Shown: positions 3,254 through 64,000 of the stretch, piece by piece
Layout of the letters: the number at the start of each line of letters is the position of its first letter
Numbering within the stretch: the first letter of the stretch is position 1
DNA from: Botryllus schlosseri
Lineage: Eukaryota
Assembly (NCBI GenBank): GCA_051294905.1
Contig: CM119371.1
Location: 32,862,001 to 32,926,000, forward strand
Length of the DNA: 64,000 nucleotides
Reading direction: 5' to 3'
Position numbers and translations under genes: made by a program
Notes under the pieces: generated by a model
Told to the model about the DNA's origin: nothing
The model's database searches: none
The model's input: the letters and a program-made list of their open reading frames with translations, nothing else

Positions 3254-4189
3254 CCTGTTTGCTTAAAATTTGGAATGGGAAAAACTATTCCACTACTGGC
3301 ACCAAATCGAACTTCAACTGTAGTTGAGTCGTGGAGATTCGGAGACGATTTCAAATACTGAAAATTACGTTTAATAATATTAATTATTGAATTATAAGTA
3401 TCTCTCAACGTGGTATATTGAACCTTTTTTAGTGAGGTGCAAACCTAAAACCGGTGTTACAAGCACATGCTCTCTTTCAGCTCGGTCCCACAACCCGCAG
3501 TTCTAACTCTGGGTCCGTGAAGCACATCTTTATGGTGTTTGCAGACCTCTAAAATTTTAACCTGAATGATAATATAATTTGTGATTTTCTTAGCTCGGGT
3601 AAAGCATCACTTCGGATATTTCTAGGCTAGTACAGTGTAGATGTAGTAATTTCAAATCCATGTCAAAGCTACTTCAACCAAGTAGGAAATGAAGGGCTGC
3701 AAAGTACTCAAGTAGTTTCAAAAAGTAGATATCAGCAGTTATCCGAGGTTGCTACTTCGAACTCGCCAAGATGTACCTTTGCAACTTGCAAAAAAAGGAC
3801 TATTGACAAGAGGTGGATGGCGGTTGCACTATTATTGAGCATGATTTGAACTAAAACTTTAGGGGTGTCTGTACGGATGCCTTTCCTTGATGGTTAAGAA
3901 AAATGGTCCGCGCCGACAAAAAATTGAGAGCCACTCTACTAAAGGTTACTGTTCACGTTAGCTGATGACTCAAAATGGTCATCACTTCCACCTGGCCAAG
4001 TCCGCATATACATTGGCCTATTTGCTATTTGATATCATATGTTGACTGAAAATAGGATCCGCAGTGCCCTGCTGCCGGTATATTTCATAAGCTGATTACT
4101 GAAATAACATCAATGTGTGTCTGTGTGTGTGTGTTAAGTGTATGTTTGACCTGATGCTTCTTTCACATAATAATATATTTCTTTGAGAC

Positions 4190-5647: not shown

Positions 5648-5733
5648 TAGGGTTCCAATACGTCCGGAATTTCCGGGACATGTCCGGAATTTCACGGTTC
5701 AAGCTTGCGCCCGGGAGGAATTCCTAAGATATG
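5648..5733. mobile_element. Left end of a hAT-like MITE (TAGGGTTCCAATACGTCCGG...) split by element 1
   Basis: TAGGG terminus and GTCCGGAATTT repeats. The motif resumes as ATGTCCAGAATTT at ~22180 after the TSD. Confidence 0.55.
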
Positions 5734-8700: not shown

Positions 8701-10699
8701 AAAAATGTGTTTGAGAAATTAAAAATTTTCCCATTGTCATTCGTCAAAGTAAATGTCGTCACAATACTCTATCACTAAAAAACCATATACTTGTATGTGA
8801 TTGAATCACCAGCAATTAACTAGCTAAATCAAACCCCTAAGAAATTTCACTCACTCATTGGATATTAAACAACGTTGCTTAATCGGTGTGAGTCGTTTTT
8901 TCTAAATATAAATCATATCTGTCCATCAGAAAACAATTTTCACTCACTTGGGTAATGAAATCAGTGTGCAATATCAATACAAGATATTTCCGTCACACAA
9001 TAAATAATCAACTTCACTCGAAATTTCCATACGACGAAACTGTACAAAGGTTTCATGTTTTTTTGTATGAAATGGAATTAATACCGATCGAAGTAACAGT
9101 ATTAGAAATGACTTTCAAACAAAGACACTATATGTGGTTAACATTCTCATCGATTCTATTGTGATCAATGTATATTTCATGTGATCTGGATTCATTTCGA
9201 TATGGTTAAACATTCAACCTCAACGGATACGAATCGTCACACACTCAAGTAATATCATACCAAATAGGTATTTACAACAACCAAGACACAGAAAATTTGT
9301 TTGGTCGTTTCGATTTTATTACTGGAGGTACTCATCACTTCGCTTAATACAATCTAGATTTAAACTCCATCGAACCTTTGGAGCCTATCGTTTTGCTGGA
9401 TACGAATTATGTTAGTCTAACAGTACACAATTTTCACTATCTTGGGTTATGAACTCAGTATGTTAGCGATCATTCAATATTTTGTAGTATCAACTAGTTA
9501 CTTCGTAGGATACGAATGATCATCCTCACAACTCTTACAAAAGTACGAAGGATATTTACATCACACAAAGTAATCGACTTTACTCGATATCCTCACACTA
9601 CGAAACTGAATGGTTGGTTTGACTCTACAAACTGTTTTTGATGTCACAAGAACTTTTTTTTTCACGAATGGTCACGCATCTAAATATTCAAATATTCCAA
9701 CACACACAACTATAGTACTTAGAGAAATATCATAGTTCTTGTAACAAAGTTGTATATGTACAATGCTTATCGTAGGTCCTACACATTTACGATAGCCGTC
9801 AGAGTTTGACTTTTAGAAACATTATACCGACATCGTGACATCTTTCAAAATTAGAACCACGGTGACTACTTGAGAGACTTATCAATGATATCGCAGTAAT
9901 AGAGTTACTTCCACAAAAGAGTATGTATTCGACTTACGTTCCACAAATCTAACGCGTAAAACAATTTACTTTGCTAACGAAAAGCGCTGAGTCATCACAT
10001 GGTTGTCTTCACAACAATACAACTAAAACATACTATCATACAAAATGATCGTTATAGTTTGCACACCAATGGTACATCGTACAAGTAACAAGTCTCGAGA
10101 ATCCAGTTACTCAAAAAACGTGAAAGTATTTTTACGCCAAGTCGTTATGTTGACGAAAGCGTATATTGTAATATCATGATCGATTTGCATTCGTTGGCTG
10201 CAAAATGTCACTACTCCAAATAATCATATCTCACTCAAAAGCATACTTGTCACCATTCGTTTTCATCAAGCACGAGTTCAAGAAACTTACTACGATATCA
10301 ATTGTTATTTTTATGTTGTGTAAATAGGTAATAATTAATTTTAGTAACACTATATCAACATCACGGAGTTGTGCGAATAGATTTACACGTAGTCTTGTGG
10401 TTTTAATCGAAGTACACAGCACGGTCTAATGTAGAGTCATCTCTATTGTGCAGCAACTCGGTAATCGAAATGCATTAACATTTGAACAGCGATCTTGTTT
10501 CGTCACACCAAAAATATGTTCACTGTCGCGATACTCTACACAAGACGTGCAAATCCTTTTCACACTCGTAATAGTATAACAACAGCTACCGGTGATAACG
10601 TTTAACAATACCAACGACACTAAACATACGATACCTACCCAAGTAAAATTATCATTTTCACCTGGAGGTCAGTCGTTACCCGAGTAGAAATACCGTTGT

Positions 10700-11250
10700 C
10701 CTTTGACGATTTATCGTTTACCCAGTGTAACAAACCCCTTTTCCTTTGGAAATCTATTTTTTCTCTGGGTAACAAACCTTTTTCACTTGGAAATATATTT
10801 TTTTCTCTGGGTAACAAACCTTTTTTACTTGGAAATATATTTTTCCCTGAGCAACAAACCATTTTCACTGAGCAACAAACCATTTTCACTGAGCAACAAA
10901 TCATTTTCACTTCGCGGGTCGTCGTTTACCTGAGTAAAAATATCATTTACCTTTGGAGATCTGGCGTTTCCCCAGTGTAACAATACATTTTTTCATGGAA
11001 ATCTACCTTTTCCCTGAACAACAAACCCTTTTCGTTTGCAAATCTATTTTTTTCCTACAACAACAAACCATTTTCACTTGGAAAAATACTTTTACCTAGG
11101 GTAACTAATCATTTTATTTTGGAAATATATTTTCTCCCTGGGCAACAAACCCTTTTCGTTTGGAAAACTATCATTTACCTGAGTACCAATACCGTTTTCA
11201 CTTGGAAATCTATCTTTTCCCTGGGTAACAATACCATTTTCGTTTTGAAA
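10700..11250. repeat. Minisatellite (~39-40 bp unit, ~20 bp subunit) in element 1 spacer
   Basis: Repeated CTGGGTAACAAACCTTTTCACTTGGAAATATATTTTTT and CTGAGCAACAAACCATTTTCA. Confidence 0.9.
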
Positions 11251-13867
11251 ACTGACAACTACACCGGTCAATTCTGATATTTTTTGTATATTGTTACAAC
11301 AGACAGTGACAAAATATACACCAACAACGACTCCGATACATTTGTGTAATCACATATTCACTTGTTCTGGTGCATCCCATCAAAACCCTCAGTTACCCAC
11401 ATGTAATGCGCTGTATATCGATGTGTATGTTTTGGAAATTGGACAATAGGTTTCGACATGTCCGCGATGTCCGGGTTCGCGCTTTGGATTTTCCAGAGTC
11501 AAAATGTCTGAATAAAACACCTCCTCGACGATGGTTGGTATGTGGATAACGGTGTTCGGTAAACGGTTGGATTTATGTCACCCATCGCGATAACAATTCC
11601 AGGTCGAGTTTTCCCCCCGCATGTTTACTATATTGTATCTTTATTGGTCAATGTATGTCCCGACATTCAGTTTGAAATCGGAAAGCCTGATAAAGTATGT
11701 AACCGGATCCGGATATCAACTCTGAATCGATAAACCAATGAACAATATTCAAAGTAAACATGTTACACCCTGTGTTTCCACGAAAAAATACCATCCAGAC
11801 ATACGTCACGCTTGTTTGCCCACACCAGTATACGCGTAAATGGAGGTGTGTGACATTGCATCCAATGTGTTGGTATACAAACATCGGGGAGTAAGCCTTC
11901 GATCCACAGACATTATCATAGCCGGTAGTTTTGATGTAGATCGAATGCCATCAAGCACACCCGATAACAATGTCAGACCAATAAGCCACATTGCAATGAC
12001 TCTGAGTCCGCGCTATTACATCGATATTTCGACACCGTTCACTGATTTACTCGATCAGTCTTTCACTAAATCACGATGCATGGATGTCGCTACTCCCACA
12101 TAACGACTCCGGATAAATATCGCGAAGAGTGATTCTGAAAACAACTTTGTTACAAGAACTATGATATTTCTGTAAGTACTATAGTTGTGTGTGTTGGATT
12201 ATTTGGATATTTAGATGCGTGACCATTCCTGAAAAAAAAGTTCTTGTGACATCAAAAACAGTTTGTAGAGTCAAACCAACCATTCAGTTTCGTAGTGTGA
12301 GGATATCGAGTAAAGTCGATTACTTTGTGTGATGTAAATATCCTTCGTACTTTTGTAAGAGTTGTGAGGATGATCATTCGTATCCTACGAAGTAACTAGT
12401 TGATACTACAAAATATTGAATGATCGCTAACATACTGAGTTCATAACCCAAGATAGTGAAAACTGTGTACTGTTAGACTAACATAATTCGTATCCAGCAA
12501 AACGATAGGTACCAAAGGTTCGATGGAGTTTTAATCTAGATTGTATTAAGCGAAGTGATGAGTACCTCCAGTAATAAAATCGAAACGACCAAACAAATTT
12601 TCTGTGTCTTGGTTGTTGTAAATACCTATTTGGTATGATAATACTTGAGTGTGTGACGATTCGTATCCGTTGAGGTTGAATGTTTAACCATATCGAAATG
12701 AATCCAGATCACATGAAATATACATTGATCACAATAGAATCGATGAGAATGTTAACCACATATAGTGTCTTTGTTTGAAAGTCATTTCTAATACGGTTAC
12801 TTCGATCGGTATTAATTCCATGTCATACAAAAAAACATGAAACCTTTGTACAGTTTCGTCGTATGGAAATTTCGAGTGAAGTTGATTATTTTTTGTGTGA
12901 CGGAAATATCTTGTATTGATATTGCACACTGATTTCATTACCCAAGTGAGTGAAAATTGTTTTCTGATGGACAGATATGATTTATATTTAGAAAAAACGA
13001 CTCACACCGATTAAGCGACGTTGTTTAATATCCAATGAGTGAGTGAAATTTCTTAGGGGTTTGATTTAGCTAGTTAATTGCTGGTGATTCAATCACATAC
13101 AAGTATATGTTTTTTTAGTGATAGAGTATTGTGACGACATTTACTTTGACGAATGACAATGGGAAAATTTTTAATTTCTCAAACACATTTTTGTAGATTT
13201 CAGTGTAGCACGTACTTCGATATTATTGTTATGGGTTTTGTATTAATCAAGACCGGTCGAATAGAAGCCGTCCAGTAAAGATAGCTCTATTTACTTTTTG
13301 ATGATCAAAGTCTTAGAGTGTGACCTCGTAATGTTTTTAAATTTCGCACATTTTCAACAGAGAGTGTGAACCGAGTTTAACACGGATTAAATGACTCCTT
13401 CCGGAGCCCAAAGTGATATTTTCGTACTGCGTATTGTGTGTAAGTTTCAATTCTCACCGCAGATCCCGACAATAAAGTATTGCACCGGTTGTTAATCAGC
13501 AAACGAAATTGTTGTTTCATCTTTAGTCTTGGGTACTGGAAATATTTTCTGATATCCGTAATACGCAGAGTGATTTGTACCAACACGGAATACCTTTCAA
13601 ATCAAGAACATTTCAGACAAGTATAGATTTACAAATCAATATTTTAATAACAATGTTTCCGAAAAGTTTGTTGCTGTCATAACTTTCAACACAACGCCGG
13701 GTCTAATTAACGCGAATAATTTAATACCCAAGTCGTGATCAACTATTACAAAATCTCATATGTAGGTAGGTAGGTATTAGGGGGGGTATGGGGCTTAGCT
13801 ACGTGGCTTTTTTCCCCATGACGATAACTAGCGATTATTCGCGACTATACCAATGGGTTACGACTGT

Positions 13868-16800
13868 TCATATAGCCCTTCCACTTGCTATCGTGAATTC
13901 GATGACTTGCCGTATAGTATGCTCAACTGTTAGCAGAGACTTGGGCGTTAATGATACTTTATTCCGCTCTGCGGTCTGTAGTAGATTCGTCCCGGCATGG
14001 TCATACTTAGGGCAGCGAAGGAGAAAGTGTTCCACGTTTTCTTCGATCCCGCACAAATCACAAAGGCCATTTTGGTCACATTTCATCCTGTGGAGATGGC
14101 CGTTCAGCCTAGAATGGCCAGTCTGCAATCGAATTAGAATTCCGGCTTCTCTGCGAGACAAATTCATGATTGGTTTCACGTCCCTGATAACTCCGATAAT
14201 ATTTTTATATTGCGAGTCGTCTTCATTTGCATTCGTGTGAGCGATCCACTTTTCCCGACATTTACCGGCAATGTGAGATTTTATTTCCTTCGCAGTTAAT
14301 TTTTGTTGGAGGGTTTCATCGCGTGTGGGAGGCCTCACGGCTGCCCGCCTTGCGATTTCATCAGCTTTTTCGTTACTGCGGATGCCCTTATGGCCGGGGA
14401 TCCAGGCCAGAACCAGTCCGATATCTAATGCATGTATATCCGATCCTAGGAGGTGGATATCGGCGATGATTTCGTTGTCTGGAGAGCAGTTTCGGATCGC
14501 CATTAGGCTGCTCTGGCTGTCTGAAAAAATAGCCACTCGACTTTCTGGCGTACCATTACGTTTGACCCAATACAGACTATTCCGGATGGCTATCAACTCT
14601 GTCGAGAGGACTGATAACTGACCGTCAAGGGTAAAACCGGAACATGCGTCTCTATTCTCCACGAAGAAACTGGCCCCGCACCCTGAGGAGGTTTTCGAGC
14701 CATCAGTATATATTCTGATGCTCTCTGCGTATTGCTCGTGTATGAATTCTTCGGCGATATATTTCGCCAGATCGGGATGGTCATCTTTCGATATTACCGA
14801 AGCCAGGCGTAAGTCAACGCCTATCTTCGGCCGTGACCATGGTGGCAACGGGAACTGTTTGTAGGTTTGGACGATAGGGCCTTCGAACATATCCTGTCCC
14901 GTCACCATGTTGAAGGTTCGGAATGAGTGTTTGTCCGGAAATATTTCATGCCACGAGCCGGTTATCAACTACATTTGCCACTATCCTAGACCGCGAGTTT
15001 AGGCAAAGTTGCAAGTGACGCAACCACATGGGAGGCTCCCCACTCGAAAGTTGCAATGCATGCAAGGGCGTGCTCCTCATTGCTCCGCAGCAAATGCGAA
15101 GTGCAGTATTCTGAATTTTCTGTATTTCATCAATTACGTATTTTGGGGAAAGTAGGTATGCTTCGGAACCATATTCCATTATTGATCTTATGGCGGATCT
15201 GTAAAGCGTCAATAAACTCGATTTTGATGCCCCCCAAGATGTTCCCGAAAGAAGACGTAACAAATTCATCCGTTTACTACATTTCGCAGTAACGGCGCGG
15301 GCGTGGCTTTGGTAGTTTAGTCGATAGTCGAATAGGATTCCGAGGTACTTGAATTCCTTAACGACTGGCAAGACAGATTCTCCGAGACTTAAGCGAATCG
15401 TAGGGATTTTGAGGCGCCTCGTGAACAATACGGCGGCGGATTTGGATATATTGATTTTGAAACCCCAATCCTTGCACCATATCCTGATTTTATCAAGAGA
15501 ATTCTGAATAACGCTCTGCACATCGCTTAGGATCAAACTAGAGTCCCATATGCAGACATCGTCGGCGAACAGATTGATATTGGTTGCTATTACTTCGGGC
15601 AGGTCGTTCATCATGATTGAGAAAAGCAAAGGGCTGATAACACTTCCCTGCTGCACGATTCCGTTTGTAAGTTCATGGACGTCTGATAGGGTGTTGTTTA
15701 TACGAACTTGAAATGTCCTTTGTGCCAAGAAGGAGTGCAGCCAGTGGATAATGTTACCTGCGAGACCGAGGCGTTGAAGCTTTAGAATGACCCCGTTTCT
15801 CCATACCATGTCGTACGCCTTTTCTATATCTGAGAAAACTGCTATGGCATCTCGCTTGTTCCAGACAGCTTTATACACATGGTCATGTAACGCGAGAATG
15901 CAATCGCTCGTGGACCATATCGACGAAACCCAATTTGTTGGTGGTTTAACAGATTTTTCTGAGTAAGCCACCATTCCAAACGATTTGCGATCATACGCTC
16001 CATTGTTTTACACATGTTGCTTGTGAGCGAGATAGGACGATAGGAGGATGTCTTGGTTTCGTCTTTGCCTTGCTTAAGTATGGGAACAATATTTGAATGC
16101 TGCCACGATTCAGGACAAGAACCCAATGCCCAGATGTCATTGATGGCCGATAGCATGATCAACTGACTTTCCTCGTCCAGGTGCTGCAGCATCTGGTAAC
16201 AGATTCTGTCAGCTCCCGGGGACGTGCTTTTGTTACGGTTCCAGATTACACACTTCATTTCCATCATATTGAATGGCGCATTTATTCCGAGTGTTTGTGT
16301 GTTATTTCCAATAGGGTGTAACGATAAATTAGTTTCCATTAAAGCACGCCTTTGCAGGAAAGAACAGTCTAACTTGTTGTTGCTGCTAAACTCAGCAAAA
16401 CTATTTGCGAGAGCATTGGCCTTTTCCTTGTTGTCAGTCAGATGAATGTCAAGATCATCGAGTACATTGATCTGGTTCCAGGACCTGCCGCAACCGTTAA
16501 TCGATCGCACGACGCGCCACACTCGGCTCAATTTTGAATTGTGATCAAGAGAAGTACAAAAGTCGTCCCAATAGGATTTTTTGGCCGAAAGTATTATCCT
16601 TCTCGCATCGGCTCGTCTTTGCTTAAAGACTATGATATCTGCCATTCTGAATGATCGTTTCAGTTTGCAGAAGGCAGCACGTTTGCGGCGGACAGCCCGG
16701 GAGCAACTATCGTTCCACCATGGGACGGAACTTTTACCTGCGATATGTTGTGTGAGGGGTATGCTCTCGGTCGCGGCTTTGATTATCGAATTGCTGACTG

Positions 16801-17575
16801 TTTCTATGGTTTTCTCGTCTAGATCTCTCAGGTATTGCGAACATAGCTTCTGAAATTCGTTCCAGTTAGCTTTTTTAAAGGACCACGACCGGTAATGGAA
16901 ATCGTCTCGGTGCCTTGGTAGCTGTAGGTCGTTCATTACAACAAAACGGTCACTCCCTAATAGTTCGTCTGTAACCTAGGTTATAACATTTGGAGCGATA
17001 TCTCTTGACGCAATGCATAGGTCCAGGAGTGAAGTCCTGGTGGTACTCGATACGGAAATATCAATACGAGTTGGCTTTGTTGTATTGACAACTACCAAGT
17101 CATTTGCATCAATTATTGAGTGAAGATGGCGGCCATTGCTATTTCTTGCGCCACTACTCCATATTGGATGGTGGGAATTGAAATCACCCAAAAGAATCGT
17201 TCTCGTGTTGCACTGCGCAAAGCATCGCTCGAAGAGGGTGCGTGAAATTGCTCGATTTGGTGGGATGTACACGTTTACTATCTGCAAGTCGTGAAATTTG
17301 ATAATCTGGGCCTCTATCGGATAGATGTTGTCTATGGGAACTTCAAAGAATGGTAGGTCTTGTCTGACGAAGATACAGACACCACCTCCGTGTTGGTCGC
17401 GATCTTTCCTATTAAGTTTGTAATTTGAAAGTCTGGGCGTGTATTTGTCGATCAAGTGTGTCTCCTGAAGGGCGATGACGTCGGGCATTGCGTCGAGTTT
17501 TTCCAAAAAATATTTTAATTCGTGAATTTTTCGATATATCCCTCTACAATTCCATTGCATGATCCTTATCGGCAT
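13868..17575 (-). pseudogene. LINE ORF2: AP endonuclease, reverse transcriptase, RNase H, C-terminal Zn knuckle
   Basis: APE: QWNCRG, LQET, GDFNSHH. RT: YRPISLTS, DIEKAYD, QGSVISP, LFADD, KYLG. RNase H: YTDGSK, FSDSQS, WIPGHKGIRSNEKAD. Knuckle: CDLCGIEENVEHFLLRC. Broken by a stop at 16976 and frameshifts near 15920 and 14960. Confidence 0.95.
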
Positions 17576-19577
17576 TGGGTACCGTAACTCGATACGAGAG
17601 AGTCAGGAATAGATGGAGTAACGTGCGTTGTCGTGGCGCTCGGGTTGGCAATAGAGGAGCTCATTTGTGTTGCCGAGTAGGTGCCATGTGGCTCGAACCG
17701 TTGCACTTCAGGTACGGAAATGACCGGTTCTACACTGGAATTTGTAGTGTTTGGTGTAGGTACGCTGTTGGAGGATAAGTCCATTGCTACCTCGTTATTG
17801 AGTCTAGGAATCGGTACAGATATACCAAGGTTTTCACCCGCGGACTTCGCGATGATCGATTCGATATCAACTGTCTTGTTCTCCGCAAACGAAAGAAGGG
17901 TATTCTTGATAACTTCCGCAATAAAGGTGAAAAACGATTCAGTTGGGATTGTTATATTGCCATTCATTTGAGTAAGGCATGTACAGTAGGGCTATTCAAA
18001 AATAACTTTTTTTTCAGATTCCAGCCATTCACTGATTAAATTGTCAGGTTACCCTAAAAAACACTGCACACCAAATTTGGTTCGATTCTAACAAGTATCG
18101 GACTCCGTAGATCCAATTAAAATTTTTAATTTATTATGGAAAATGAAAAAAAAAATTCCAAATTTTTCTGCCAACCCCATGAAGTTGTTGAGCTGTCTTC
18201 AAAGACGTTGCAAAACAAATTTGAGTCAATTCCGACCAGTAGAAGCGGAGTTATGTAAGTTTTTCGTTGATCAATCGCGGATTATCACCGATCAAGGATA
18301 ATCCGAGGATTATCATCGAAAAACTCACATAACTCCGCTTCTACTGGTCGGAATTGACTCAAATTTGTTTTGCAACGTCTTTGAAGACAGCTCAACAATT
18401 TCATGGGGTTGGCAGTAAAATTTGGAATTTTTTTTTTTTCATTTTTCATAATAAATTAAAAATTTTAATTGGGTCTGCGGATGCCTTTACTGGTTGGAAT
18501 CGAGTGAAATTTGGTGAGCAAGGTTTTCTACTGCAACCTGACGATTTAAGAGGTGAGCGGCTTGAATCGGGAAAAAAAAGTTATTTTTGAACAGCCCTAA
18601 TGTACAGCTCGAAGATTTGCTTGACATGGGAGCGGCGTTCGACTTCGCAACGGGTTGTGACGCCCTTTCTGTAGATGTATGGCCCTTTGTGCTGAGCTGC
18701 ACAGAGCATTCCGAACGTGTCTCGACTACTACGGCTTCTTTCGGGGCGGTTTTCTGTTCTTCCAATTTACGCGCGTCCCAATAATTTATCTTATCATTAG
18801 CCATAATAGATTGAATTCGCGCCTTTTTCTTAAACCGGGAGCATCCTGCATAGCCTGCAGAGTGGGCTAAGCCACAATTTACACAATAAGGGTCCTTATT
18901 GCAGTTGTCGTATGTATGTTTGTTTCCACATTTCGTACATCTCTGCGCGCTCCTGCAATACTTAGATTTATGCCCGAAACGGTTACAATTGAAACACCGA
19001 GTTGGTGGCGGATTATAGACCCTGGTACGGAATCGAAGAAAACCTATTTGTACCACAGTTGGTAGAGTGGGAGACGCAAAACATAAGAGAACAGAGGTAC
19101 TCTTCGCTAGACCTTTTACACCACGATACGGAAAGCGACGCACGAACGCGACACGAGCGAGTTTTCAAGAGCTTCAAGTATTTCCTGGTCGGATAGATCG
19201 ATAGGAACATCCGATATGACGCCTCGACTTTCCAATGGTTTACTACGATATAGCTCTGCCTTGATTTCAATATTAATTTTCCCCTCACCAAGATCGGTGC
19301 ACGCCAAGAGTTTCGTCACCTGATTTGAGTTAGAACAAACTGCACAAAGGTTTCCCGAGGGAAGAACCTTAATCTCCTTGTACGAACCGCCTATGACTCG
19401 CACTAAACTGCGATTGATAGTAATCGGATTGTACCGTCGCAGAGGTTTAGCGATTCCTGAAATAACTACCGAGGTGTCATCCGGGCAGAGGATAACAGAT
19501 CCGCTACTCCTGCCTTTTGATGCCGGACCTTCGGCTTCCTCACTAGCTGGGCGCTTATGCCCGCCAGATCCGCTCAT
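17566..19577 (-). pseudogene. LINE ORF1 gag-like protein with three CCHC knuckles
   Basis: MSGSGGHKRPAS... start. Knuckles CFNCNRFGHKSKYC, CTKCGNKHTYDNC, CVNCGLAHSAGYAGC. Frameshift near 19140 and interrupted by MITE 17987-18599. Confidence 0.9.
17987..18599. mobile_element. hAT MITE, almost entirely palindromic
   Basis: TIR TAGGGCT(A/G)TTCAAAAATAACTTTTTTTT. Perfect 8-bp TSD ATGTACAG (17979-86, 18600-07). Internal inverted symmetry centred ~18295. Confidence 0.95.
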
Positions 19578-22199
19578 CTTAGAACGTCTGGCTACAACTA
19601 TAGCAATGGACAAACAGTATCGCTGTAAGGCGAGACAAATGCCCCTAGAACTAATTACAAAGGCTTTCTCCGGACTAATTCGCAAACGTAATGATCGCGC
19701 TGAAGGCACGTCCTATCGCTACGACGTTCACCGAGAGAGAAATCTCATATGTCGAATCAATGTGTCAATCCTTATGTTTATAGTATGATAACTTTGAATA
19801 TAACACCAACGTTCGATTGTAAGAAATGAAGTCGCGACTACGTTGATCAGACTTTCAAATCTCGTATACTCGAACATATTATGTTAATCTCAAGTCACCT
19901 GCAGCGGGTAGTAATTACTTTTGTCTTACAAAATATATCGAGTAATAATTACTTTGTCTTGCAGAATATACCGCGTAGTAATTCCTCTTCCTTACAGAAT
20001 AGTAACGACTTTTGAAGTTGAATAAAAATACGAGTTGGTGGACTATGAGTACAACCGAACTTGTTATGGATTTTGGATTGTGGTGATTACTCGTGTATGC
20101 TTGGCTAACTGCTTGAGTTGGTCGGGTAAGTTACAAACGGATTTACTTGACAAGGTTTTTTTTTGTATTTTACTCTTTTGTGTATGGGAAGATGTTAAAA
20201 TGTTGAGACATTATACTATTTCCGTTCACTCGATTGCAACAAAAAAATAACCTGATAGTTTGTTCAAGGTTTCGACAAATAGATTGAAATATTCCGATTT
20301 AACTCATCGCGTCACAAGTCGATCGCGGTATGCACAACTGGTTGTCAAGTTAGAAATATTTACAACAGGTGTTATTTCATTGATTGATTCTATTGTGTGT
20401 AGTAACACATCAAAATATCGCGATAGTATTTACTGAAACTCTATTTGATAAACGGAAAACTCAGTCGTGAATAGAGTTGTAAGTTTCAAGGATTGTTTCA
20501 AAGTATGATCTTGAAATGTGACTGGATCAAAGTTGGTAGTCATGTTTGTCAATATATTTCAATTCAGATTATGTCAAAGTCCAAATATTTCATTTTGGAT
20601 TATCTGGATTTACCTTTAGTACATCCCGCGAATGGATTCCGACATCGCGCTATAACATTTGTGATAATAAGGACTCGAGGATTTTCATGATAGAGTTGAC
20701 GAGTGATAAGATGTGTGTTTTTGTTAAGAGTTTGATTTCAAGAGTTTGATTTCAAGTTAATAAAGACAATAACTGTATAATGCACATACTTGTGATTCTT
20801 GATTCTTGTAGAGTTATAGTTGGTATTGATTCTATGATTGTGAAAACAGCGGCGCGGAATGTGCGAATAATTCGATGTGGCTGAAAGTCGGCGTCAGTAA
20901 TATTCAGGTTACGGTCGAATCAAAAGATCACGTTAAAAAGATTTCTCAAAATAATTAGAATTGTACCGAATTAACACATTCAAATACGAATCAACTTGGT
21001 TTGTGTAGTAAGTTTCATTTCAAGTTGACAAATTGACACATTACTTGTATATTCACATGATTCTTATCATAGAACTAAAGTCAACCACGTTCCGAAGTGT
21101 CAAAACATATAGCAAGCACCAGAAAGCGTCAAATTGTTGGTTTTCGAATCACCGTCTACGCCTGCTCTGTGGTAAACTAATTACCGAAATATTACCTTGT
21201 GAGCGATCGGTATGTCTTTAACACCAAGTCACTAAAATGGTTATGCCCGAGACATTATCTTGTTAGCGATCGCGGGATTTGCAATCTATTTTACACTTTT
21301 TGAGGTGTTAATTTACGAGTGCGGTTATTTGTTGGTCGCTTTTCGTGTCGCTGCTGAATACGGAATACTCCTGCATGTAATAGTACTGACTGGATTAGTG
21401 TAATAATCGATACGATAGTGCGCGCTCGAAATCCTCTTGCACAACAGGACGCGTTTCCAAAACGGATGTATTTAGTTGGTCACAAATGTCAAAACGCGGT
21501 CGCGAACATCTGTTTTTCAAAATCGTACATTGCACTGGGGTTTAGTGAATTTCCTGTTTAGTGATACTCGTGACTATTTACTTGATACATATTCAACACC
21601 GTGTGAGAGATTCCTATATCCGAAAGTACGATATGCCGTCGCACCCATAAGAAACAATGGCACATCACCAGAGATCCCGTAAGAATACATGACAGACACA
21701 TTATCGTCGTTAGCATGTCGCCGCACGTATACCTAAAAACATTAGCATGCCACCCCCGGTTTTCACGTTAGCATGCCGCCGCCGCCTATACCCGAAAGTA
21801 CGAATCATCGCCGCATCCATAATAATAACGATATATTGAAGTCGCATTCGCCGTAAACGTTAGGATTAACCCGAATCGTTCATATAAAATAATTTGGGAT
21901 ATACACATTAACTAAGAACCAATCACGTGAGTATTTACTTGATACTTCTTCAACACCGGTCGAGCGATCCCTATACCGAAAAGGGTTACTGGTCGAGAGA
22001 TGCCTATACCAACCCAGGCACCGGTCGAGCGGAAGGGGGGTCTGAAAGTACGAGTCACCACCGCAAGGAGGGGGTCAAAAGGGTCACCGGTTCAACACGA
22101 GTTTCGCGGCACCGGTCGAGCGGGTCCATAAGAACCCCAGGCAAATCACGAGCGATCATATATCCTACTGATTTGCCTAAATGTCCAGAATTTGAGGCT

Positions 22200-53465: not shown

Positions 53466-53770
53466 CTGCACACTAGGGATGGTGTGAATCTCTGAAAGGT
53501 TCAGGTTATTTTGAACGCGAACCTTTTTGAAAGGTTCTGTGTGAACGCGAACGCGAACATCATGACGTCAAGTGACGTCATATTGCTAATTCCAACCCTA
53601 CATTTCAGTGAAGTGCCATCCTTCACACTAGGGATGGTGTGAACCTCTGAAAGGTTCAGGTTATTTTGAACGCGAACCTTTTTGAAAGGTTCTGTGTGAA
53701 CGCGAACGCGAAAATCATGACGTCACGTGACGTCATATTGCTAATTCCAACCCTACATTTCAGTGAAGTG
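53466..53770. repeat. 155-bp tandem duplication of a hAT-like end (TAGGGATGG...)
   Basis: Two near-identical units starting 53466 and 53621. A matching opposite-type end ...CATACCATCCCTA with GAACC/GGTTC motifs lies at ~43930-44044. Confidence 0.85.
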
Positions 53771-53979
53771 ACAGCCAATATTAAAGTACAAGCACGATAT
53801 CTAGCGCAGACTCGGGCCACATAAAATGCCACAATGCTGAAGTATATATTGACGTTTTAACGTCCCCAAATGCATCAACTGGGGCAATCAAATGATATAA
53901 TAAACCCATAAAATCAATATCTTTCGTCGCTTTGCTAACAATTTCGACGAGGACTTGCAAGGGAATATAAGCGTACGCC

Positions 53980-56900
53980 AGTAGTTAAGTAGATCTCTCG
54001 TGAGGTGGCAGGGGCTCTTATGGGCGGGGTGGTGACCTGCCGCGAAACCCGGGGTGATGACCCCACCCTTTTAGACCCCCTATGTGGTGGTGACCTGCCA
54101 TTGTTTCTTATGGGCGCGGTGATGATACCACCCTTTCGGGTATAGGCTGCGGCGATGATATACCTTGAAAACTCGTGTTGGTGACCCCACCCTTTCGGTA
54201 TAGGCTGCGGTGATGACCTGCCGTCTCGTGTTCGAGGGAATCCCAACGTTTACGGTGAATGCGACTTCAATATATCGTTATTCTTATGGCCGCGGCGGTG
54301 ATTCGTACTTTCGGGTATAGACTGCGGGTGGCATGTCGTACTTTCAACAAAAAAGGCGTGAAAATAGTTTGCAAAATCTAGGAATAACTAGCAAGGTAAT
54401 ATTTGGTAATTAGTTTACCAGAGAGCCGGCGTAGACGGCGATTCCAATACCAACAATAGCCGCGTTCACATATTAACACTCCAAATAGGTGTGAAATAGT
54501 TTGCAAACCCTGCGATCGCTGACAAGATAATGTCTCAGACATACGCGACTTGATGTTACAGGCATATCGATCACTCACGCGGTGAAATTTTCGTAAGCAG
54601 TTTGGGACAGAGCTTGATTTCACTCGTAAGATTTAATAAGTAACGAATAACAGACCGCCAGGGTCGGTAACTTGAATAGCGACAAATTGCCACTTATTTC
54701 CGCTCTAACCCTAATCCTTTGTGAAGTGAACGCTTATTCAAAAAGGTGTGAAATATTGGTAAAATCTCGCGACCGCTCACAAGATAATACCTAAGACATA
54801 ACCATCGCTCGCGACTCGCTGTTACATACACGCCGATCGTTGACAATGTAATATTTTGGTAATTGGTTTGCCACATAACCGGCGTAGACGGTGATACCAA
54901 CAATAGCCGCGTTCACAAACTAACACTTCAAAAAGGTGTGAAATAGGTTGCAAACCCCGCGATCGCTGACAAGATATTGTCTCGGACATAACCATCTTTC
55001 GCGACTTGCTGTTACATACATTCCAAACACTCACAAGATACTATTTTGGTACTTAATTTGTCACAGAACCGGATTTCGCTGGTAAAATTTAATAAGTAAC
55101 GAATAACAGAGCCGGCGTAGACGGTGATTCGAATACCGACAAATTTTCACTTATTTCTGTCCCAACCCTAATCCTCTGTGAAGTTGACGCTTATTCAAAA
55201 AGGTGTGAAATAATTGTAAAAATCCTACGTCGCTGACACGATAATGCATCAAACATAGCGATCTAGTTATAGTACGGTGTCGGAATCCATTCGCGAGATG
55301 TTCTAGAGGTAAATTGAGATAATCCGAAACCGAATATTTTGACTTTGGCGTAGTGTGAATTGAAATAGGATTGACAAACATGACTACCAACTTTCCCACA
55401 GTCCCGTTTCGATATTATACACACATTGATTTGAAACAAGTAATGTAACATTGCAACTCTATTCACGGCCCCGCTTTCCGTTTGTCAAAGAGATATTTTA
55501 ACATCTTACCATACTGAAAAGAATTATTCACAACAATAACAATTGTTAAAAATCTAGTTTTCACTTACTTGATTATATCACTACAACTCATAAATTTGAA
55601 TTAATTCATCCTGGTTGTATTCGTATGATCGGTCTTTTTTTTTATTCGATTGTAAAGGTCGTTACTATTCTGAAGACAAAGTATTTACTAATCGGTGCAT
55701 ACACGATTCGACTTGAACATATTATATTTTGAGTATACGAGATTTCAATGTCTGAACAATAACTGAGAAATAATTTATCACAATTAAATCCGTAAAAGAT
55801 ATTTGAATGTCAGCAACTCGGTAAGGTCATAGTTACTACCACATTACCTAATTTACCCGACCAACTCGTCATGATCATTCCCGAAATCAACACAAACATG
55901 ACTACTGACTTGAGTCAACCACAAAACAGCATCAAGTTTTAAATCCGCTTGTAGCTTACGGCTTATTTGAATGCGGGTTATGTTTTGTTGTAATTGAGTG
56001 TACGGAAATAGTCTTACGTCTCGACATCTCACCATCTTGCCATCAACAAAAGAGTAAAATACACAAACCTTGTCAAGTCAATCCGTTTGTAACTCACCGA
56101 ACCAAAGCAAAAAGTGTCCATACGAAAAGTAGACAAGACTACGCAAGTAATCACTACAACCCACAAACATATCAAGTTCGGTTTTAGGCATATACCACCA
56201 ACTCGTCTTTTTTGTTCAACTGTAAAAGTCGTTACTATTTTGCAAGACAAAGTAATGACTACTCGATAGATTTTGTAAGACAAAAGTAACTACTACTCGA
56301 TGCAGGCGCCTTGAGATTAACCTAACATGTTTGAGTATACAAGATTTGAAAGTCTGGCCATCGTAGTTGAGAATTCATTTCTTACAATCGAACGTAGGTG
56401 TTATATCGAAAATTATCATGATGTAAACATAAGGATTGTCACATCGATTTGACATATGGGGTTTTGTAATGGTCTATCATGACTTGATTACTAATTTATT
56501 TGTGTTAATTAGACCCGCCGATGTGGTGAAGGTTATTATGACAGCAACAAACTTTTCACTATCATGGCTATTAACATATTGAGTTGTAAAACTATACGTG
56601 TCTGAAATGTTCTTGATTGACAAATCATTCCACCTTGGTACAAATCACTCTGGGTATCGCGGATATCAGAAAATACTTTACAAATGTAATCGTTTCAGTT
56701 ACCAAGACTAAAGATGAAACAACAATTCCGTTTGCTGGCTAACAACCGGGCAATACTTTATTGTCAGAATCTGTGACGGTGAATTGAAACATACTCATCT
56801 TACACAGTACGAGTAAATCACTTTGGACTCCGGGCGGCGTCGTTTAATCCGTGTTAAACTCTGTTCACACTCTCTGTCGAATGTGTGAAATGTAAAACAT

Positions 56901-59900
56901 TACGAGGTTACACTCTAAGACTTTGATCAACAGAGAAACAATTTTGAATATCTTTACTGGATGGATCCTATTCAACCGACCTTGGTTAATACAAAACTCA
57001 TAACAATAATAAAATCGAAGTATGTGCTACACTGAAATCTAGAAAAAATGTGTTTGTATTGTTGTTCATAGTAGTGATATCGATTTGAACCTGCGGAATA
57101 ATTGTCATCATCTAACCAAACTAATGAAAGTCGTTGTCAATTTGTATGATGTTCACTGAATGCATACTAGTACTATTTGTGCAACACACACGAGCAGAGA
57201 AATTGGAAATTTTCCCATTGCCATTTGTCAAAGTAAATGTCGTCACAATACTCAGTCACTAAAAGACCATATACTTGTATGTGATTGAATCACCAACAAT
57301 TAACTCGCTAAATCAAATCGTAAGGCAATTTCACGCACTCAGCGGATATTACACAACGTCGCTTTATCGGTGTGGGTCGTTTTTTCTAAATACAAATCAT
57401 ATCTGTCCAGTAGAAAACAATTTTCACGCACTTGGGTAATGAAACCAGTGTGCAATATCAATACAAGATATTTTCGTGACACAAAAAATAATCAACTTAC
57501 TCGATATTCTCGTAAAACGAAACTGTACACAGGTTTCATGTTTTTTGTATGACACGGAATTAATACCGATCGAAGTAACTGTGTTGGAAATGACTTTCAT
57601 ACAAATACACTCTATGTGGTTAACATTCTCATCGATTCTATTGTGATCAATGTATACTATATGTATTCTGGATTCATTTCGATATGGCTAAACATACAAC
57701 CTCGACAGATACGAATTGTCACACACTCAACTAATATCATACCAAATAGTTATTTACAACAACCAAGACACAGAAAATTTGTTTTGGCCGTTTCGATTTT
57801 ATTACTGGAGGTACTCATCACTTCGCTTAATACAATCTAGATTTAAACCCCATCGAACCTTTGGTGTCTATCGTTTTGCTGGATACGAATTATGTTAGTC
57901 TGTTGGTGTCTATCGTTTTGCTAGATACGAATTATGTTAGTCTAACAGTAAACAATTTTCACAATCTTGGGTTATGAATTCAATGTGTTGGCGGTCATTC
58001 ATTATTTTGTTTGTATCAACTAGTTACTTTGTAGGGTATGAATGAGCACCCTCCCACAACTCTTACAAAAGTACGAAGGATATTTACATCACACAAAGTA
58101 GTCGACTTTACTTCATATCCTCACACTACGAAACCAAATGGTTGTGTAGACTCTACAAACTTTTTTACACGAATGGTCACACATCTAAATATTAAAATAA
58201 TCCAACACACAACTATAGTACTTACAGAAATATCATAGTTCTTGTAACAAAGGTGTTTATCGTAAGTCCTACACAGCCATGATATCCGTCCGAGTTTGAC
58301 TTTTAGAAAACATTATACCGACATCGCGACATCTTTCAAAATTAAAACCACTGTGACTGCTTCAGAGACCTACCAATGATATTGCAGTAATACAGTTACT
58401 TCCACAAAAGAGTATGTATTCGACTTACTTACCACAAATCTAACGCACAAAACAATTTACTTTACTAACGAGAAGCGCCGAGCCTCACATCAAAACAACT
58501 AGAAAGTGGAACTATATTAAAAAACGTCGCTAACCTTTGTGCACCAGCTGTAAATCACACAAGCAACATGTTTCAAGATTCTGGTTATTGAAAAACGTTA
58601 AAGTGTTTCTACGCCAAGTCGTTATGTTGACGAAAGCGTATACCATGATCGATTTGCATTCGTTGGTCACAAACTGTCACTACTCTAAATAATTAATTTT
58701 CACTCAAACACAAAAGCATACTTGTCACCAATCGTTTTCATCAAGCACGAGTTCAAGAAGCTTACTTACTACGACATGAATTGTTATTTTTATGTTGTGT
58801 AAATAGGTAATAATTTATTTTAGTAACACTACATAAACATCATCGAGTTGTGCTAATAGATTTACATGTGGTTTTAATCGAAGTACACAGCACGGTCTAA
58901 TGTAGATTCATCTCTATTGTACAGCAACTCGGTAATCGAAATGCATTAACATTTAAACAACGATCTTGGTTCGTCACGCGAAAAATATCTTTACTGTCGC
59001 AACACTCTGATACTCTGCACAAGATGTGTAAATCCTTTTCACACTCATAATTATACACTAACGGGATACCGACGTCAAGCAACAACGTTTAACAACATCA
59101 CTGACACTGAACATACGATACCTACCCAAGTAAAAATATCATTTTCACCAGGAGGTCAGCCGTTACTTGTGTACAATTACCATTTTCCCTTGGGAGTTTA
59201 GCGTTACCCGAGTAACAAAACCATTTTCACTTGGAAATATATGTTTCCCCTCAACAACAAACGTTTTTTCACTTGGAAATATATTTTTTCCCTGGGTAAC
59301 AAACCCCTTTTCACTTGGAAATATATTTTTACCCTGGATAACAAACCTTTTTCACTTGGAAATATATTTTTTCTCTTGGTAACAAACCTTTTTCACTTGG
59401 AAATATATTTTTTCTCTGGGTAACAAACCTTTTTCACTGAGCAACAAACCCTTTTCTCCCCAGGCAACAAACCCTTTTCGTTTGGAAAACTATCATTTAC
59501 CTGAGTACCAATACCATTTTCGTTTTGAAAACTGACAACTACACCGGTCAATTTGATATTTTTTGTATATTGTTACAACAGACAGTGACAAAATATACAC
59601 CAACAACGACTCCGATACATTTGTGTAATCGCATATTCACTTGTTCTGGTGCATCCCATCAAAACCCTCAGTTACCCACATGTAATGCGCTGTACATCGA
59701 TGTGAATGCTTTGGAAAATTGGGCAATAGGCTTCGATAGTTCTGTGATGTCCGGGTTCGTGCTTTGGATTTTCCAGAGTCAAAATGTCTGAATAAAACAC
59801 CTCCTTGACGATGGTTGGTATGTGGATAACGGTGTTCGGAAAACGGTTGGATTTATGTCACCCATCGCGATAACAACTCCAGATCGAGTTTTCCTCCCGC

Positions 59901-62900
59901 ATGTTTACTATATTGTGTCTTTATTGGTAAATGTATGTCTCGACATTCAGTTTGAAATCGGAAACCCTGATAAAGTATGTAACCGGATCCGGATATCAAC
60001 TGTGAATCGATAAACCAATGGACAATATTCAAAGTAAACATGTTACACCCTGTGTTTCCACGAAAAAATACCATCCAGACATACGTCGCGCTTGTTTGCC
60101 CACCTCAGTATACGCGTAAATGGAGGTGTGTGACATTGCATGCAATGTGTTGGTATACAAACATCGATCCACAGACATTATCATAGCCGGTAGTTTTGAT
60201 GTAGATCGAATGTCACCCGATAACAATGTCATACCAATAAGCCACATTGCAATGACTCTGAGTCAATCTGAATCATGACATACAGACACACAAACATAGA
60301 AACCGTAACATGGGTATTCGCACGACGGTGAAAGTGAACTGTACAACATATACCAATTGGGCGTTCACAGTCGAATATGCGAACCATGCACAATCATATA
60401 CCCAGATTTTTGTTGGATATGTACGAAACCGATAAATCGATACATTTCTTTTCCTTCAACGTCAATAATACAATCGCCATTCAAATACATCGCTCGAATG
60501 TGAGGTTCGTCTGGTGTAAAATCCATGTCAAATAACACCAAAGTGTGCCTTCCGTGTTTTATCATTTCCACCGACGCTTCTTGTCTGTGTCGTAACACTA
60601 TGGTGCTGGGACTTGAAAAACGACAGATTGTGAAACGGATTGACATGACCAACTGAATCGATGTCAATAACCTTGTGGTGATGACAGTGTCAAAATGCTA
60701 CCGATATGACGAGACCAACCCGATCTCTTGTAGCGATGACCGTTTCGAAATGTCACCGGACGAAATGGACCCTTACGATGATGTGTTTTATGATTGTGTG
60801 TGAAATCACGAGGTAGTGTTCTATTTGTGGTGTACGATTGCGGTCTTCACAGAAACACACCTTATTGGATCACAGTATCAGTCCGAGATTTGCAGAATTA
60901 CTGTTTGCGATATTTATCTGGAGTCGTTATGTGGGAGTAGCGACATTCATGCATCGTGACTGAAAGACTGATCGCAATCATTTCGAACACCGTACTTCGA
61001 TAGTTCACATTGGTCAAACGCTGCAGTATCAGCAGAAAACTTCGGTGTCGACAACACGACGGATATTGGCCGATGTATCCAATTGGTCTGGGTGATCTGT
61101 CCGGAGATAGGGTCATGACTATCTTGCAATGTAACAACACGATAACACCATCGAGTAAATCAGTGAACGGTGTCGAAATATCGATGTAATAGCGCGGACT
61201 CAGAGTCATTGCAATGTGGCTTATTGGTATGACATTGTTATCGGGTGACATTCGATCTACATCAAAACTACCGGCTATGATAATGTCTGTGGATCGATGT
61301 TTGTATACCAACACATTGCATGCAATGTCACACACCTCCATTTACGCGTATACTGAGGTGGGCAAACAAGCGCGACGTATGTCTGGATGGTATTTTTTCG
61401 TGGAAACACAGGGTGTAACATGTTTACTTTGAATATTGTCCATTGGTTTATCGATTCACAGTTGATATCCGGATCCGGTTACATACTTTATCAGGGTTTC
61501 CGATTTCAAACTGAATGTCGAGACATACATTTACCAATAAAGACACAATATAGTAAACATGCGGGAGGAAAACTCGATCTGGAGTTGTTATCGCGATGGG
61601 TGACATAAATCCAACCGTTTTCCGAACACCGTTATCCACATACCAACCATCGTCAAGGAGGTGTTTTATTCAGACATTTTGACTCTGGAAAATCCAAAGC
61701 ACGAACCCGGACATCACAGAACTATCGAAGCCTATTGCCCAATTTTCCAAAGCATTCACATCGATGTACAGCGCATTACATGTGGGTAACTGAGGGTTTT
61801 GATGGGATGCACCAGAACAAGTGAATATGCGATTACACAAATGTATCGGAGTCGTTGTTGGTGTATATTTTGTCACTGTCTGTTGTAACAATATACAAAA
61901 AATATCAAATTGACCGGTGTAGTTGTCAGTTTTCAAAACGAAAATGGTATTGGTACTCAGGTAAATGATAGTTTTCCAAACGAAAAGGGTTTGTTGCCTG
62001 GGGAGAAAAGGGTTTGTTGCTCAGTGAAAAAGGTTTGTTACCCAGAGAAAAAATATATTTCCAAGTGAAAAAGGTTTGTTACCAAGAGAAAAAATATATT
62101 TCCAAGTGAAAAAGGTTTGTTATCCAGGGTAAAAATATATTTCCAAGTGAAAAGGGGTTTGTTACCCAGGGAAAAAATATATTTCCAAGTGAAAAAACGT
62201 TTGTTGTTGAGGGGAAACATATATTTCCAAGTGAAAATGGTTTTGTTACTCGGGTAACGCTAAACTCCCAAGGGAAAATGGTAATTGTACACAAGTAACG
62301 GCTGACCTCCTGGTGAAAATGATATTTTTACTTGGGTAGGTATCGTATGTTCAGTGTCAGTGATGTTGTTAAACGTTGTTGCTTGACGTCGGTATCCCGT
62401 TAGTGTATAATTATGAGTGTGAAAAGGATTTACACATCTTGTGCAGAGTATCAGAGTGTTGCGACAGTAAAGATATTTTTCGCGTGACGAACCAAGATCG
62501 TTGTTTAAATGTTAATGCATTTCGATTACCGAGTTGCTGTACAATAGAGATGAATCTACATTAGACCGTGCTGTGTACTTCGATTAAAACCACATGTAAA
62601 TCTATTAGCACAACTCGATGATGTTTATGTAGTGTTACTAAAATAAATTATTACCTATTTACACAACATAAAAATAACAATTCATGTCGTAGTAAGTAAG
62701 CTTCTTGAACTCGTGCTTGATGAAAACGATTGGTGACAAGTATGCTTTTGTGTTTGAGTGAAAATTAATTATTTAGAGTAGTGACAGTTTGTGACCAACG
62801 AATGCAAATCGATCATGGTATACGCTTTCGTCAACATAACGACTTGGCGTAGAAACACTTTAACGTTTTTCAATAACCAGAATCTTGAAACATGTTGCTT

Positions 62901-64000
62901 GTGTGATTTACAGCTGGTGCACAAAGGTTAGCGACGTTTTTTAATATAGTTCCACTTTCTAGTTGTTTTGATGTGAGGCTCGGCGCTTCTCGTTAGTAAA
63001 GTAAATTGTTTTGTGCGTTAGATTTGTGGTAAGTAAGTCGAATACATACTCTTTTGTGGAAGTAACTGTATTACTGCAATATCATTGGTAGGTCTCTGAA
63101 GCAGTCACAGTGGTTTTAATTTTGAAAGATGTCGCGATGTCGGTATAATGTTTTCTAAAAGTCAAACTCGGACGGATATCATGGCTGTGTAGGACTTACG
63201 ATAAACACCTTTGTTACAAGAACTATGATATTTCTGTAAGTACTATAGTTGTGTGTTGGATTATTTTAATATTTAGATGTGTGACCATTCGTGTAAAAAA
63301 GTTTGTAGAGTCTACACAACCATTTGGTTTCGTAGTGTGAGGATATGAAGTAAAGTCGACTACTTTGTGTGATGTAAATATCCTTCGTACTTTTGTAAGA
63401 GTTGTGGGAGGGTGCTCATTCATACCCTACAAAGTAACTAGTTGATACAAACAAAATAATGAATGACCGCCAACACATTGAATTCATAACCCAAGATTGT
63501 GAAAATTGTTTACTGTTAGACTAACATAATTCGTATCTAGCAAAACGATAGACACCAACAGACTAACATAATTCGTATCCAGCAAAACGATAGACACCAA
63601 AGGTTCGATGGGGTTTAAATCTAGATTGTATTAAGCGAAGTGATGAGTACCTCCAGTAATAAAATCGAAACGGCCAAAACAAATTTTCTGTGTCTTGGTT
63701 GTTGTAAATAACTATTTGGTATGATATTAGTTGAGTGTGTGACAATTCGTATCTGTCGAGGTTGTATGTTTAGCCATATCGAAATGAATCCAGAATACAT
63801 ATAGTATACATTGATCACAATAGAATCGATGAGAATGTTAACCACATAGAGTGTATTTGTATGAAAGTCATTTCCAACACAGTTACTTCGATCGGTATTA
63901 ATTCCGTGTCATACAAAAAACATGAAACCTGTGTACAGTTTCGTTTTACGAGAATATCGAGTAAGTTGATTATTTTTTGTGTCACGAAAATATCTTGTAT
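53980..64000. mobile_element. Element 2: second giant fold-back Polinton/Maverick-like element (right end beyond window)
   Basis: Starts AGTAGTTAAGTAGATCTCTCGTGA, homologous to the element 1 terminus and collinear with it over ~6 kb. 61197-64000 is the reverse complement of 57461-60264 (mirror ORF coordinates all sum to 121461). Spacer 60265-61196. Confidence 0.85.
59210..59530. repeat. ~40-bp minisatellite in element 2 left arm (mirror at 61931-62251)
   Basis: Same CTTGGAAATATATTTTTT..GGTAACAAACC unit as 10700-11250, but a shorter array. Confidence 0.9.

Follow-up and report, generated by a model that had tools for sequence, protein, structure and literature searches.

The closest described relatives of the DNA analysed here are virus-like transposons of the Maverick/Polinton type. 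According to the part of the vertebrate study that we draw upon (PMC8097293), vertebrate Mavericks have (AGT)2//(ACT)2 ends and a 6-bp target duplication, terminal inverted repeats (TIRs) of 46-1447 bp and total lengths of 12.7-24.6 kb, and their repeated ends are linked to a 'jumping-back' step of protein-primed replication. Few descriptions exist of non-autonomous Mavericks/Polintons. Here we report on two long palindromic elements, element 1 (E1) and element 2 (E2), in a 64,000-bp stretch of the Botryllus schlosseri genome (C1:32862001-32926000, where C1 is contig CM119371.1 of assembly GCA_051294905.1, comprising 495.5 Mb in 219 contigs). This whole stretch is called the window, and positions without a contig name refer to it; 10 kb of contig beyond it were added to complete E2. 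E1 and E2 are very probably two insertions of one high-copy palindromic family, which is allied to Maverick/Polinton elements and most likely helper-dependent.

The palindromes resemble autonomous Mavericks/Polintons in their end motif, their 6-bp duplication, the possession of terminal inverted repeats and a length within the range given in the consulted part of PMC8097293. In addition, their single small gene is also found in a resident element that bears a capsid gene and has AGTAGT ends. In contrast to the repeats of 46-1447 bp quoted from the same source, however, the palindrome repeats measure 6.2-6.8 kb, or 8.8 kb in one subfamily, and the repeat arms amount to about 93% of the element. 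Furthermore, no polymerase, integrase, capsid, ATPase or protease gene was detected in the palindromes, which carry one gene of about 92 codons instead. Butterfly polintons, as far as the consulted part of their description goes (bioRxiv 10.1101/2025.02.07.637071), have kilobase-sized terminal repeats that duplicate genes, comparable to a second palindromic family on contig C2 (see below). Their gene-bearing repeats of about 2 kb are a minority of the length and the elements remain fully coding, unlike the palindromes. A literature search returned no palindromic, near-genome-length Maverick derivative with one gene; Repbase and Dfam lay outside this search, so the family may be catalogued already.

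E2 is intact and represents a very recent insertion, since its arms are identical and its target duplication is perfect. Self-comparison on the extended contig gave an identity of 100.000% between 53980-60264 and 61197-67481, i.e. over 6285 bp, and the part of the inverted repeat that lies inside the window (57461-60264 / 61197-64000) is likewise 100% identical. The element totals 13,502 bp with a unique centre of 932 bp, starts with AGTAGT, ends with ACTACT and has TACGCC on either flank. Zero of 27 open reading frames (ORFs) in E2, the longest of 147 aa, scored above the Pfam cut-off, and Rfam gave zero matches in the arm and the centre. Coding capacity for a protein-primed family B polymerase or a retroviral-type integrase was found in none of these 27 ORFs. 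Hence, the family is at most a non-autonomous relative of Mavericks and not a Polinton in the strict sense. An ORF of 147 aa at 60898-61341 was dropped as a candidate for the family gene because of its missing conservation in other copies.

At face value, the 100.000% arm identity of E2 is suspicious. Fold-back chimeric long reads, or polishing that equalised both arms, might be held responsible, and the read-derived unitigs are short, with no span across the turn-points. However, E2 lies 8.9 Mb inside a 41.8-Mb contig, measured from the contig end, and is bordered by a perfect 6-bp target duplication. The common plan recurs in dozens of copies with individual flanks on many contigs, and the same assembly preserves arm differences of 1.4-4% in other copies. 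The probability of an artefact of this kind is therefore considered negligible. The palindromes are neither chance nor an assembly artefact, since E2 and three further copies carry perfect 6-bp duplications and at least 18 further genomic copies have the same palindromic plan as E1 and E2. In the genome searches with arm DNA, only the best-ranked candidates were scored.

Five elements were read from end to end, namely E1, E2, one on C7 and two on C11, one of which is nested in the other. All five start with AGTAGT and end with ACTACT. The 6-bp target duplication is perfect in four (TACGCC, AACGTT, GGAGTC and GACGAT), while in E1 five of six bases agree. A 27-nt subterminal motif yielded 347 forward and 337 reverse matches in the genome and 0 in a control with the reversed pattern; these 684 terminal-motif matches correspond to roughly 340 family copies. 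The first 100 listed motif sites form 39 adjacent plus/minus pairs, 21 of which are 13.3-14.9 kb apart, and leave 22 sites unpaired. After removal of insertions and restoration of deletions, the base length is 13.3-14.3 kb in all five elements, the lowest similarity among their centres being about 75%. A canonical member thus spans about 13.3-14.9 kb and consists of two arms of 6.2-6.8 kb without a detected domain or long ORF, and of a centre of about 0.9 kb (0.66-0.95 kb in the members examined). The original prediction of a family of endogenised palindromic elements with Polinton-like ends is borne out in this respect: the family is large, with (AGT)2//(ACT)2 termini, 6-bp duplications and a common small gene. 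On these three features a kinship of the family with Mavericks is supported, as far as sequence can tell.

Four elements of more than 16 kb were considered as autonomous forms (E1, 16.4 kb; two on C7, 18.3 and 19.9 kb; one on C11, 26.9 kb), but turned out to be palindromes with insertions, with a nested copy or with longer arms. No family ORF of at least 200 aa is present in these four, the longest reaching 199 aa. Searches with arm DNA returned palindromic copies only, and thus no parent carrying the arm sequence, among the best candidates scored; the terminal motif had 0 matches in a viral contig collection. The C11 element (C11:22902224-22929144) contains a 13.4-kb palindrome with arms of 99.95% identity and the duplication GACGAT, nested in the right arm of another member, whose own arms are still 99.8-100% alike. 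The 19.9-kb element (C7:24019801-24039720) belongs to a longer subfamily; its arms measure about 8.8 kb and its centre 1063 bp, one arm contains an extra piece of 1.1 kb, and its central gene is intact. Three terminus pairs are spaced by 9.28-9.34 kb (C4:12897500-12906780, C5:24847888-24857106 and C6:9880854-9890133), which hints at a smaller size class, one that may have multiplied in its own right. Another three terminus pairs span 4.0, 6.0 and 6.8 kb.

E1 is an older member, with arms about 1.4% apart. Its arms pair in two blocks, 5734-8142 with 22169-19740 (97.4% identity) and 8130-9753 with 13763-12141 (98.6%), which in the right arm are separated by a 5976-bp insert at 13764-19739. Because the minus strand of this insert codes for endonuclease, reverse transcriptase and RNase H, the insert is a long interspersed nuclear element (LINE). 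The termini are AGTAGT and ACTACT, and the flanks, GATATG at 5728-5733 and GATTTG at 22170-22175, are the same at five of six positions. The segment 9754-12008 is single-copy within E1 and collinear with the inner arm of E2. Collinearity continues 47 bp into the centre of E2, 10926-12055 corresponding to 62257-61150 in the minus-strand reading. Alignments to E2 and to L037, a canonical copy of the subfamily to which E1 belongs, revealed two deletions. The first comprises 175 bp between two remnants of the centre. The second comprises 2630-2667 bp, so that E1 continues from 12139 with right-arm sequence that lies about 2 kb outward of the turn. The joints of the deletions show overlaps of 4 and 3 bp, and the small gene was deleted. 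E1 thus began as a canonical palindrome, from which 175 bp and about 2.63-2.67 kb were later deleted and which, in a separate event, acquired a LINE. Its arms differ by 57 substitutions (26 transitions and 31 transversions) without a CpG excess. The E1 arms (5734-9753 compared with 12141-22169) show no CpG depletion, the observed/expected ratio being above 1. The 5' part of the LINE contains an inverted repeat at 17980-18606 (627 bp, 86.7%).

According to the original prediction, each element was one end of a parent that had been duplicated by its own template switch, and the resulting copy-back genomes were then integrated. The mirror coordinates on which it relied (9753/12141 in E1, 60264/61197 in E2) are exact on self-comparison and do differ between the two elements. 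Its statement that the unique spacer of E1 from 9754 to about 12008 is duplicated arm in E2 is likewise confirmed by the alignment of E1 with E2. Moreover, strand-displacing polymerases of such a class readily form inverted joins, and the second palindromic family turns at another point relative to the common gene. For a comparison of the turn-points, the inverted repeat of each copy was mapped on its own, and the centre thus defined was aligned to that of E2. This was done for 15 copies (L002-L005, L007-L010, L012, L024, L027, L029, L030, L037 and the inner C11 element). In 15 of 15, the centre, of 900-952 bp, aligned over the full length 1-932 with 89-95% identity, so that the turn-point of E2 recurs exactly even in copies which are merely 89% alike. 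Two more divergent copies have centres of 660 and 805 bp with partial homology to that of E2. When the inner arm and centre of E2 were used as the query, many copies on other contigs had a match to arm plus centre that abutted, at an identical base, an inverted match to the arm by itself.

The subfamily of E1 behaves in the same way. With E1 11800-12400 as the query, the closest relatives of E1 (95-96% identity) match 11800-12055 only, and the mirror of 11800-12008 lies about 1.1 kb away; L037 turns at the base equal to E1 12008. E1 itself still contains two stretches of the canonical centre, whose order is unchanged and which simple deletions separate, and its segment joints have no second occurrence among the best 40 of 2358 candidates. 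Consequently, the mirror points of E1 and E2 differ because of two internal deletions in E1 rather than a separate fold-back. What was found is essentially one common turn-point together with internal deletion, and the proposal of one template switch per element fails; we consider it highly improbable. The further assumption that the spacer simply continues one arm was right for E1 9754-12008, which is collinear with the arm, but overlooked the conserved gene in the centre.

The centre of the family is predicted to encode one conserved small protein rich in beta structure. Of 20 regions tested, 16 have its ORF as one uninterrupted frame, three have it split (L004, L009 and the inner C11 copy), and E1 has lost it. 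The start codon is conserved and the protein comprises 91-93 aa, or 102 aa in one copy. The ratio of non-synonymous to synonymous substitution rates (dN/dS) was calculated for 12 pairs and is 0.24-0.59 throughout, with 0.27-0.34 where dS is about 1. Among 5.8 billion proteins the 93-aa protein of E2 has one close hit, which is unnamed, and a profile search of 1.84 billion representatives yielded six hits with E <= 1e-3, one of them strong. The structure model (pLDDT 74) has eight strands. An alpha-crystallin/HSP20-like sandwich was the best Foldseek match, with E values of 0.011 (PDB) and 0.018 (viral models) that are not significant, and the best VIA Z of the model was 5.5, below the noise level of about 7-8. 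An ORF of a resident virus-like element matches E2 60380-60697 (tblastn E 3e-5) and also the centre of the 19.9-kb C7 copy (tblastn E 4e-5). Genome-wide, at least 150 sites contain the small gene, mostly as an open frame, among the best 150 of 1184 candidates. A 37-39% class lies at the midpoint of palindromes of the E2 family, e.g. within C1:17980996/17994256. Many matches are outward-facing inverted pairs at both ends of elements of 11-25 kb; because such pairs are frequent, several element families have the small gene within their terminal repeats or next to them.

Copies of the family differ from each other by 6-18%, whereas the two arms within a copy are 95-100% identical. A maximum-likelihood tree was built from the inner 720 bp of the arm pairs of 18 copies. 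Partner arms had the same sequence in 11 copies and formed supported sister branches in six, one pair stayed unresolved, and no arm joined that of a different copy. Faithful copying of a palindrome with a single origin should have set the "A" arms apart from the "B" arms; since they do not separate in this way, the arms must have been re-matched along each lineage. Mosaicism is mirrored as well: the C7 copy is 98.6% identical to E2 over the outer 3.4 kb and 84% over the inner arm, likewise in both of its arms. The differences between the E1 arms are evenly spread, with variance versus mean per 100 bp of 2.08 versus 1.46 and 1.23 versus 1.38. Given the range of arm identities from 100% to about 95% and this even spread of the 57 substitutions, we consider it more likely that the arms start out identical when an element inserts and then diverge than that conversion in place acts on them continuously.

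These observations also bear on the possibility that the palindromes are ordinary cut-and-paste foldback transposons, moved by an unidentified DDE transposase and homogenised by gene conversion within the chromosome, with Maverick-like ends by coincidence. Foldback (FB) transposons of Drosophila have long inverted arms with internal tandem arrays, are mostly geneless and are prone to internal deletion, and in these traits the palindromes are similar to them: their arms contain tandem arrays, no gene was detected in them, and Pfam detects no polymerase or protease of the Maverick type. Close inverted repeats can also convert each other. The target duplication of FB transposons, however, is 9 bp and their arms are chiefly tandem repeats, in contrast to the 6-bp duplication, the AGTAGT end and the mostly unique arms of the palindromes, in which a 41-bp array takes up about 0.4 kb only. 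The 6-bp duplication and the exact (AGT)2//(ACT)2 ends together are a Maverick signature, and resident elements with capsid genes and the same ends carry homologues of the central gene next to their termini. Arm identities ranging from 100% to about 95%, with even differences in E1, resemble an insertion clock and not an equilibrium. Finally, a base length of 13.3-14.3 kb is kept in five elements despite centres that are only about 75% alike. We therefore regard a foldback transposon of this type as unlikely.

Recruitment of the palindromes by the host, with hairpin RNA from read-through transcription feeding a small-RNA silencing of Mavericks, is less probable still. Perfect inverted arms of 6 kb would give double-stranded RNA if they were transcribed. 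Yet no observation speaks in favour of such a role, and about 340 dispersed copies with target duplications of their own and nested insertions point to selfish spread.

The interpretation as a family allied to Mavericks raises the question of a helper. C3:18967691-18984249 is, by the features of its sequence, a putative resident Maverick-type element with the end motif of the palindromes. Its 16,559 bp run from AGTAGT to ACTACT, with TIRs of about 293 bp (91%); it contains a capsid-like ORF and is flanked by a perfect duplication of CATGGT. About 0.3 kb inside its right end, an outward-reading ORF of 112 aa is homologous to the central gene of the palindromes; the proteins share 28% amino acid identity and the motifs HRFxWP and YRFVGV. 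The virus-like element C11:4506703-4526063 (19.4 kb, inverted ends of 359 bp with 98.6% identity) encodes a packaging ATPase of the Pox_A32 type, a 431-aa ORF which a protein atlas groups with double jelly-roll (DJR) capsid-like clusters, a 542-aa ORF similar to DUF5906/VapE helicase-primases, a caspase-domain ORF and a ubiquitin-conjugating enzyme. Three ORFs of this element had no sequence match in the PDB at E <= 0.1. It has no DNA in common with E2 and is not put forward as the helper. Capsid-like relatives of its 431-aa ORF occur in at least 97 places and form at least four divergence classes, of about 93-100%, 85%, 69% and 34-36% identity, with many open frames; the capsid-like ORF of the C3 element belongs to the 36% class. 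Every copy of the 69% class has the same two in-frame stop codons, one TGA and one TAG. The blank genome search with the DJR capsid profile PF21738 is a false negative, since a protein query finds 97 capsid-like ORFs.

Several points weigh against the proposed interpretation. No element could be tied to the palindromic family as its helper. Past the first 8-9 bases, the terminal 700 bp of the C3 element have no DNA similarity with E1 or E2. Since the distance of the gene from the end is 6.4 kb in the E2 family but 0.3 kb in the C3 element, the arms are not simply the end of the latter. Genome searches with Pfam profiles for protein-primed polymerase (pPolB, PF03175) and adenain (PF00770) were blank, which is weak evidence as the capsid search missed its target too and the controls of these searches likewise gave no match. 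The 150 scored rve matches include none in known Maverick intervals, a result that is uninformative as the search was swamped by long ORFs of the retrotransposon type. The fold of the small protein yields no function with the Foldseek and VIA scores given above, and the identity of the arms could also have been maintained by gene conversion in place.

Concerning the origin of the palindromes, the plan of arm, unique segment and inverted arm is that of snap-back or copy-back defective viral genomes. In adenovirus, incomplete particles contain genomes of this kind. A similar plan is seen in chimeras formed during phi29 amplification: in the part of PMC1855051 used here, 406 of 475 chimeras (85%) are inverted with an intervening segment, and such a join leads to the arm-loop-arm plan of the palindromes. 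The junctions of copy-back genomes and phi29 chimeras are new and variable in each event, whereas the junction of the palindromic family is fixed and inherited in 15 of 15 copies. Moreover, unlike copy-back genomes, the palindromes are integrated, exist in hundreds of copies and have kept a selected gene.

The second palindromic family (C2:27214801-27218400) has arms 1-1367 and 2202-3568 of this locus, which are 100% identical and extend off it, and a centre of 834 bp. Its small gene is present in both arms, points outward and lies 127 bp from the turn; outside this gene its DNA is unrelated to E2. Comparable close divergent pairs of small genes are found at C11:328864/331076 and C9:7243091/7245289. 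Because the fold point relative to the gene differs between the families but is fixed within that of E2, copy-back remains plausible as a rare, one-time founding event of each family.

A mechanism can be envisaged in which a strand-displacing polymerase founded each palindromic family by switching template once, in inverted orientation. Resident Mavericks would supply integration and replication in trans through their retroviral-type integrase and protein-primed polymerase, the latter presumably starting on the repeated AGT ends. During protein-primed replication the displaced single strand would fold back, and the arms would be mismatch-corrected or re-copied in each round and diverge only once integrated. 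The narrow range of lengths may reflect a size constraint of packaging or replication. In this tentative and possible, though not the favoured, form the palindromes are endogenised, self-perpetuating lineages of defective Maverick genomes that arose by at least two separate fold-backs close to an end of a Maverick, with the gene in the loop or in both arms, retaining this one gene as their own, kept near a packageable length and re-matched by snap-back.

If this holds true, virus-like transposons spawn satellite lineages comparable to defective-interfering genomes, and such satellites can outnumber their helpers (about 340 copies, about 4.6 Mb or about 0.9% of the genome). The pattern of arm identity would then be a natural test of Maverick replication and genomic evidence for single-stranded intermediates in it. 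Arm divergence may also date insertions as the divergence of long terminal repeats does, which depends on the proposed re-matching at transposition. The small protein would then be what enables a satellite to make use of its helper; as an orphan common to satellites and several virus-like families, it would be an easy target for expression and binding assays.

Table 1. Features of the palindromic elements E1 and E2 (coordinates of the window)
Feature	Position	Strand	Remarks
E1 left arm, full length	5734..12008	+	mirror partner survives for 5734-9753 only
E1 centre remnants	12009..12140	.	12009-12055 = E2 61196-61150; 12052-12141 = E2 60974-60889
E1 right arm, inner surviving part	12141..13763	-	innermost ~2.0 kb of arm and ~0.62 kb of centre lost
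LINE in E1 right arm	13764..19739	-	RNase H, RVT_1 and Exo_endo_phos domains
E1 right arm, outer part, ends ACTACT	19740..22169	-	flank GATTTG 22170-22175
E2 left target-site duplication TACGCC	53974..53979	.	right copy just past 67481, outside the window
E2 left arm, 6285 bp, AGTAGT start	53980..60264	+	without Pfam or Rfam match
41-bp tandem array, inner arm of E2	59212..59438	.	mirror ~62023-62249; in E1 ~10700-11240
E2 unique centre, 932 bp	60265..61196	.	end-to-end alignment with the centres of 15 other copies
E2 conserved small gene, 93 aa	60368..60646	-	stop codon 60365-60367; reads toward the left arm
E2 right arm, part inside the window	61197..64000	-	continues to 67481 = C1:32929481, ends ACTACT

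The reads recovered for the region of E2 are represented by short unitigs of high depth and by 47 partly fitting reads from one RNA run. Immediately to the left of E2, a 155-bp unit is present in two copies (97% identity) at 53459-53770. Most of the few RNA reads that could be placed fall on 53562-53842, and three DNA runs show a very high word depth there. In three sequencing runs, labelled as three different other organisms, 24-31% of the sampled 31-letter words from the left flank and terminus of E2 were found; from this sharing, either the flanking repeat or the end of the element would be near-identical in other species.

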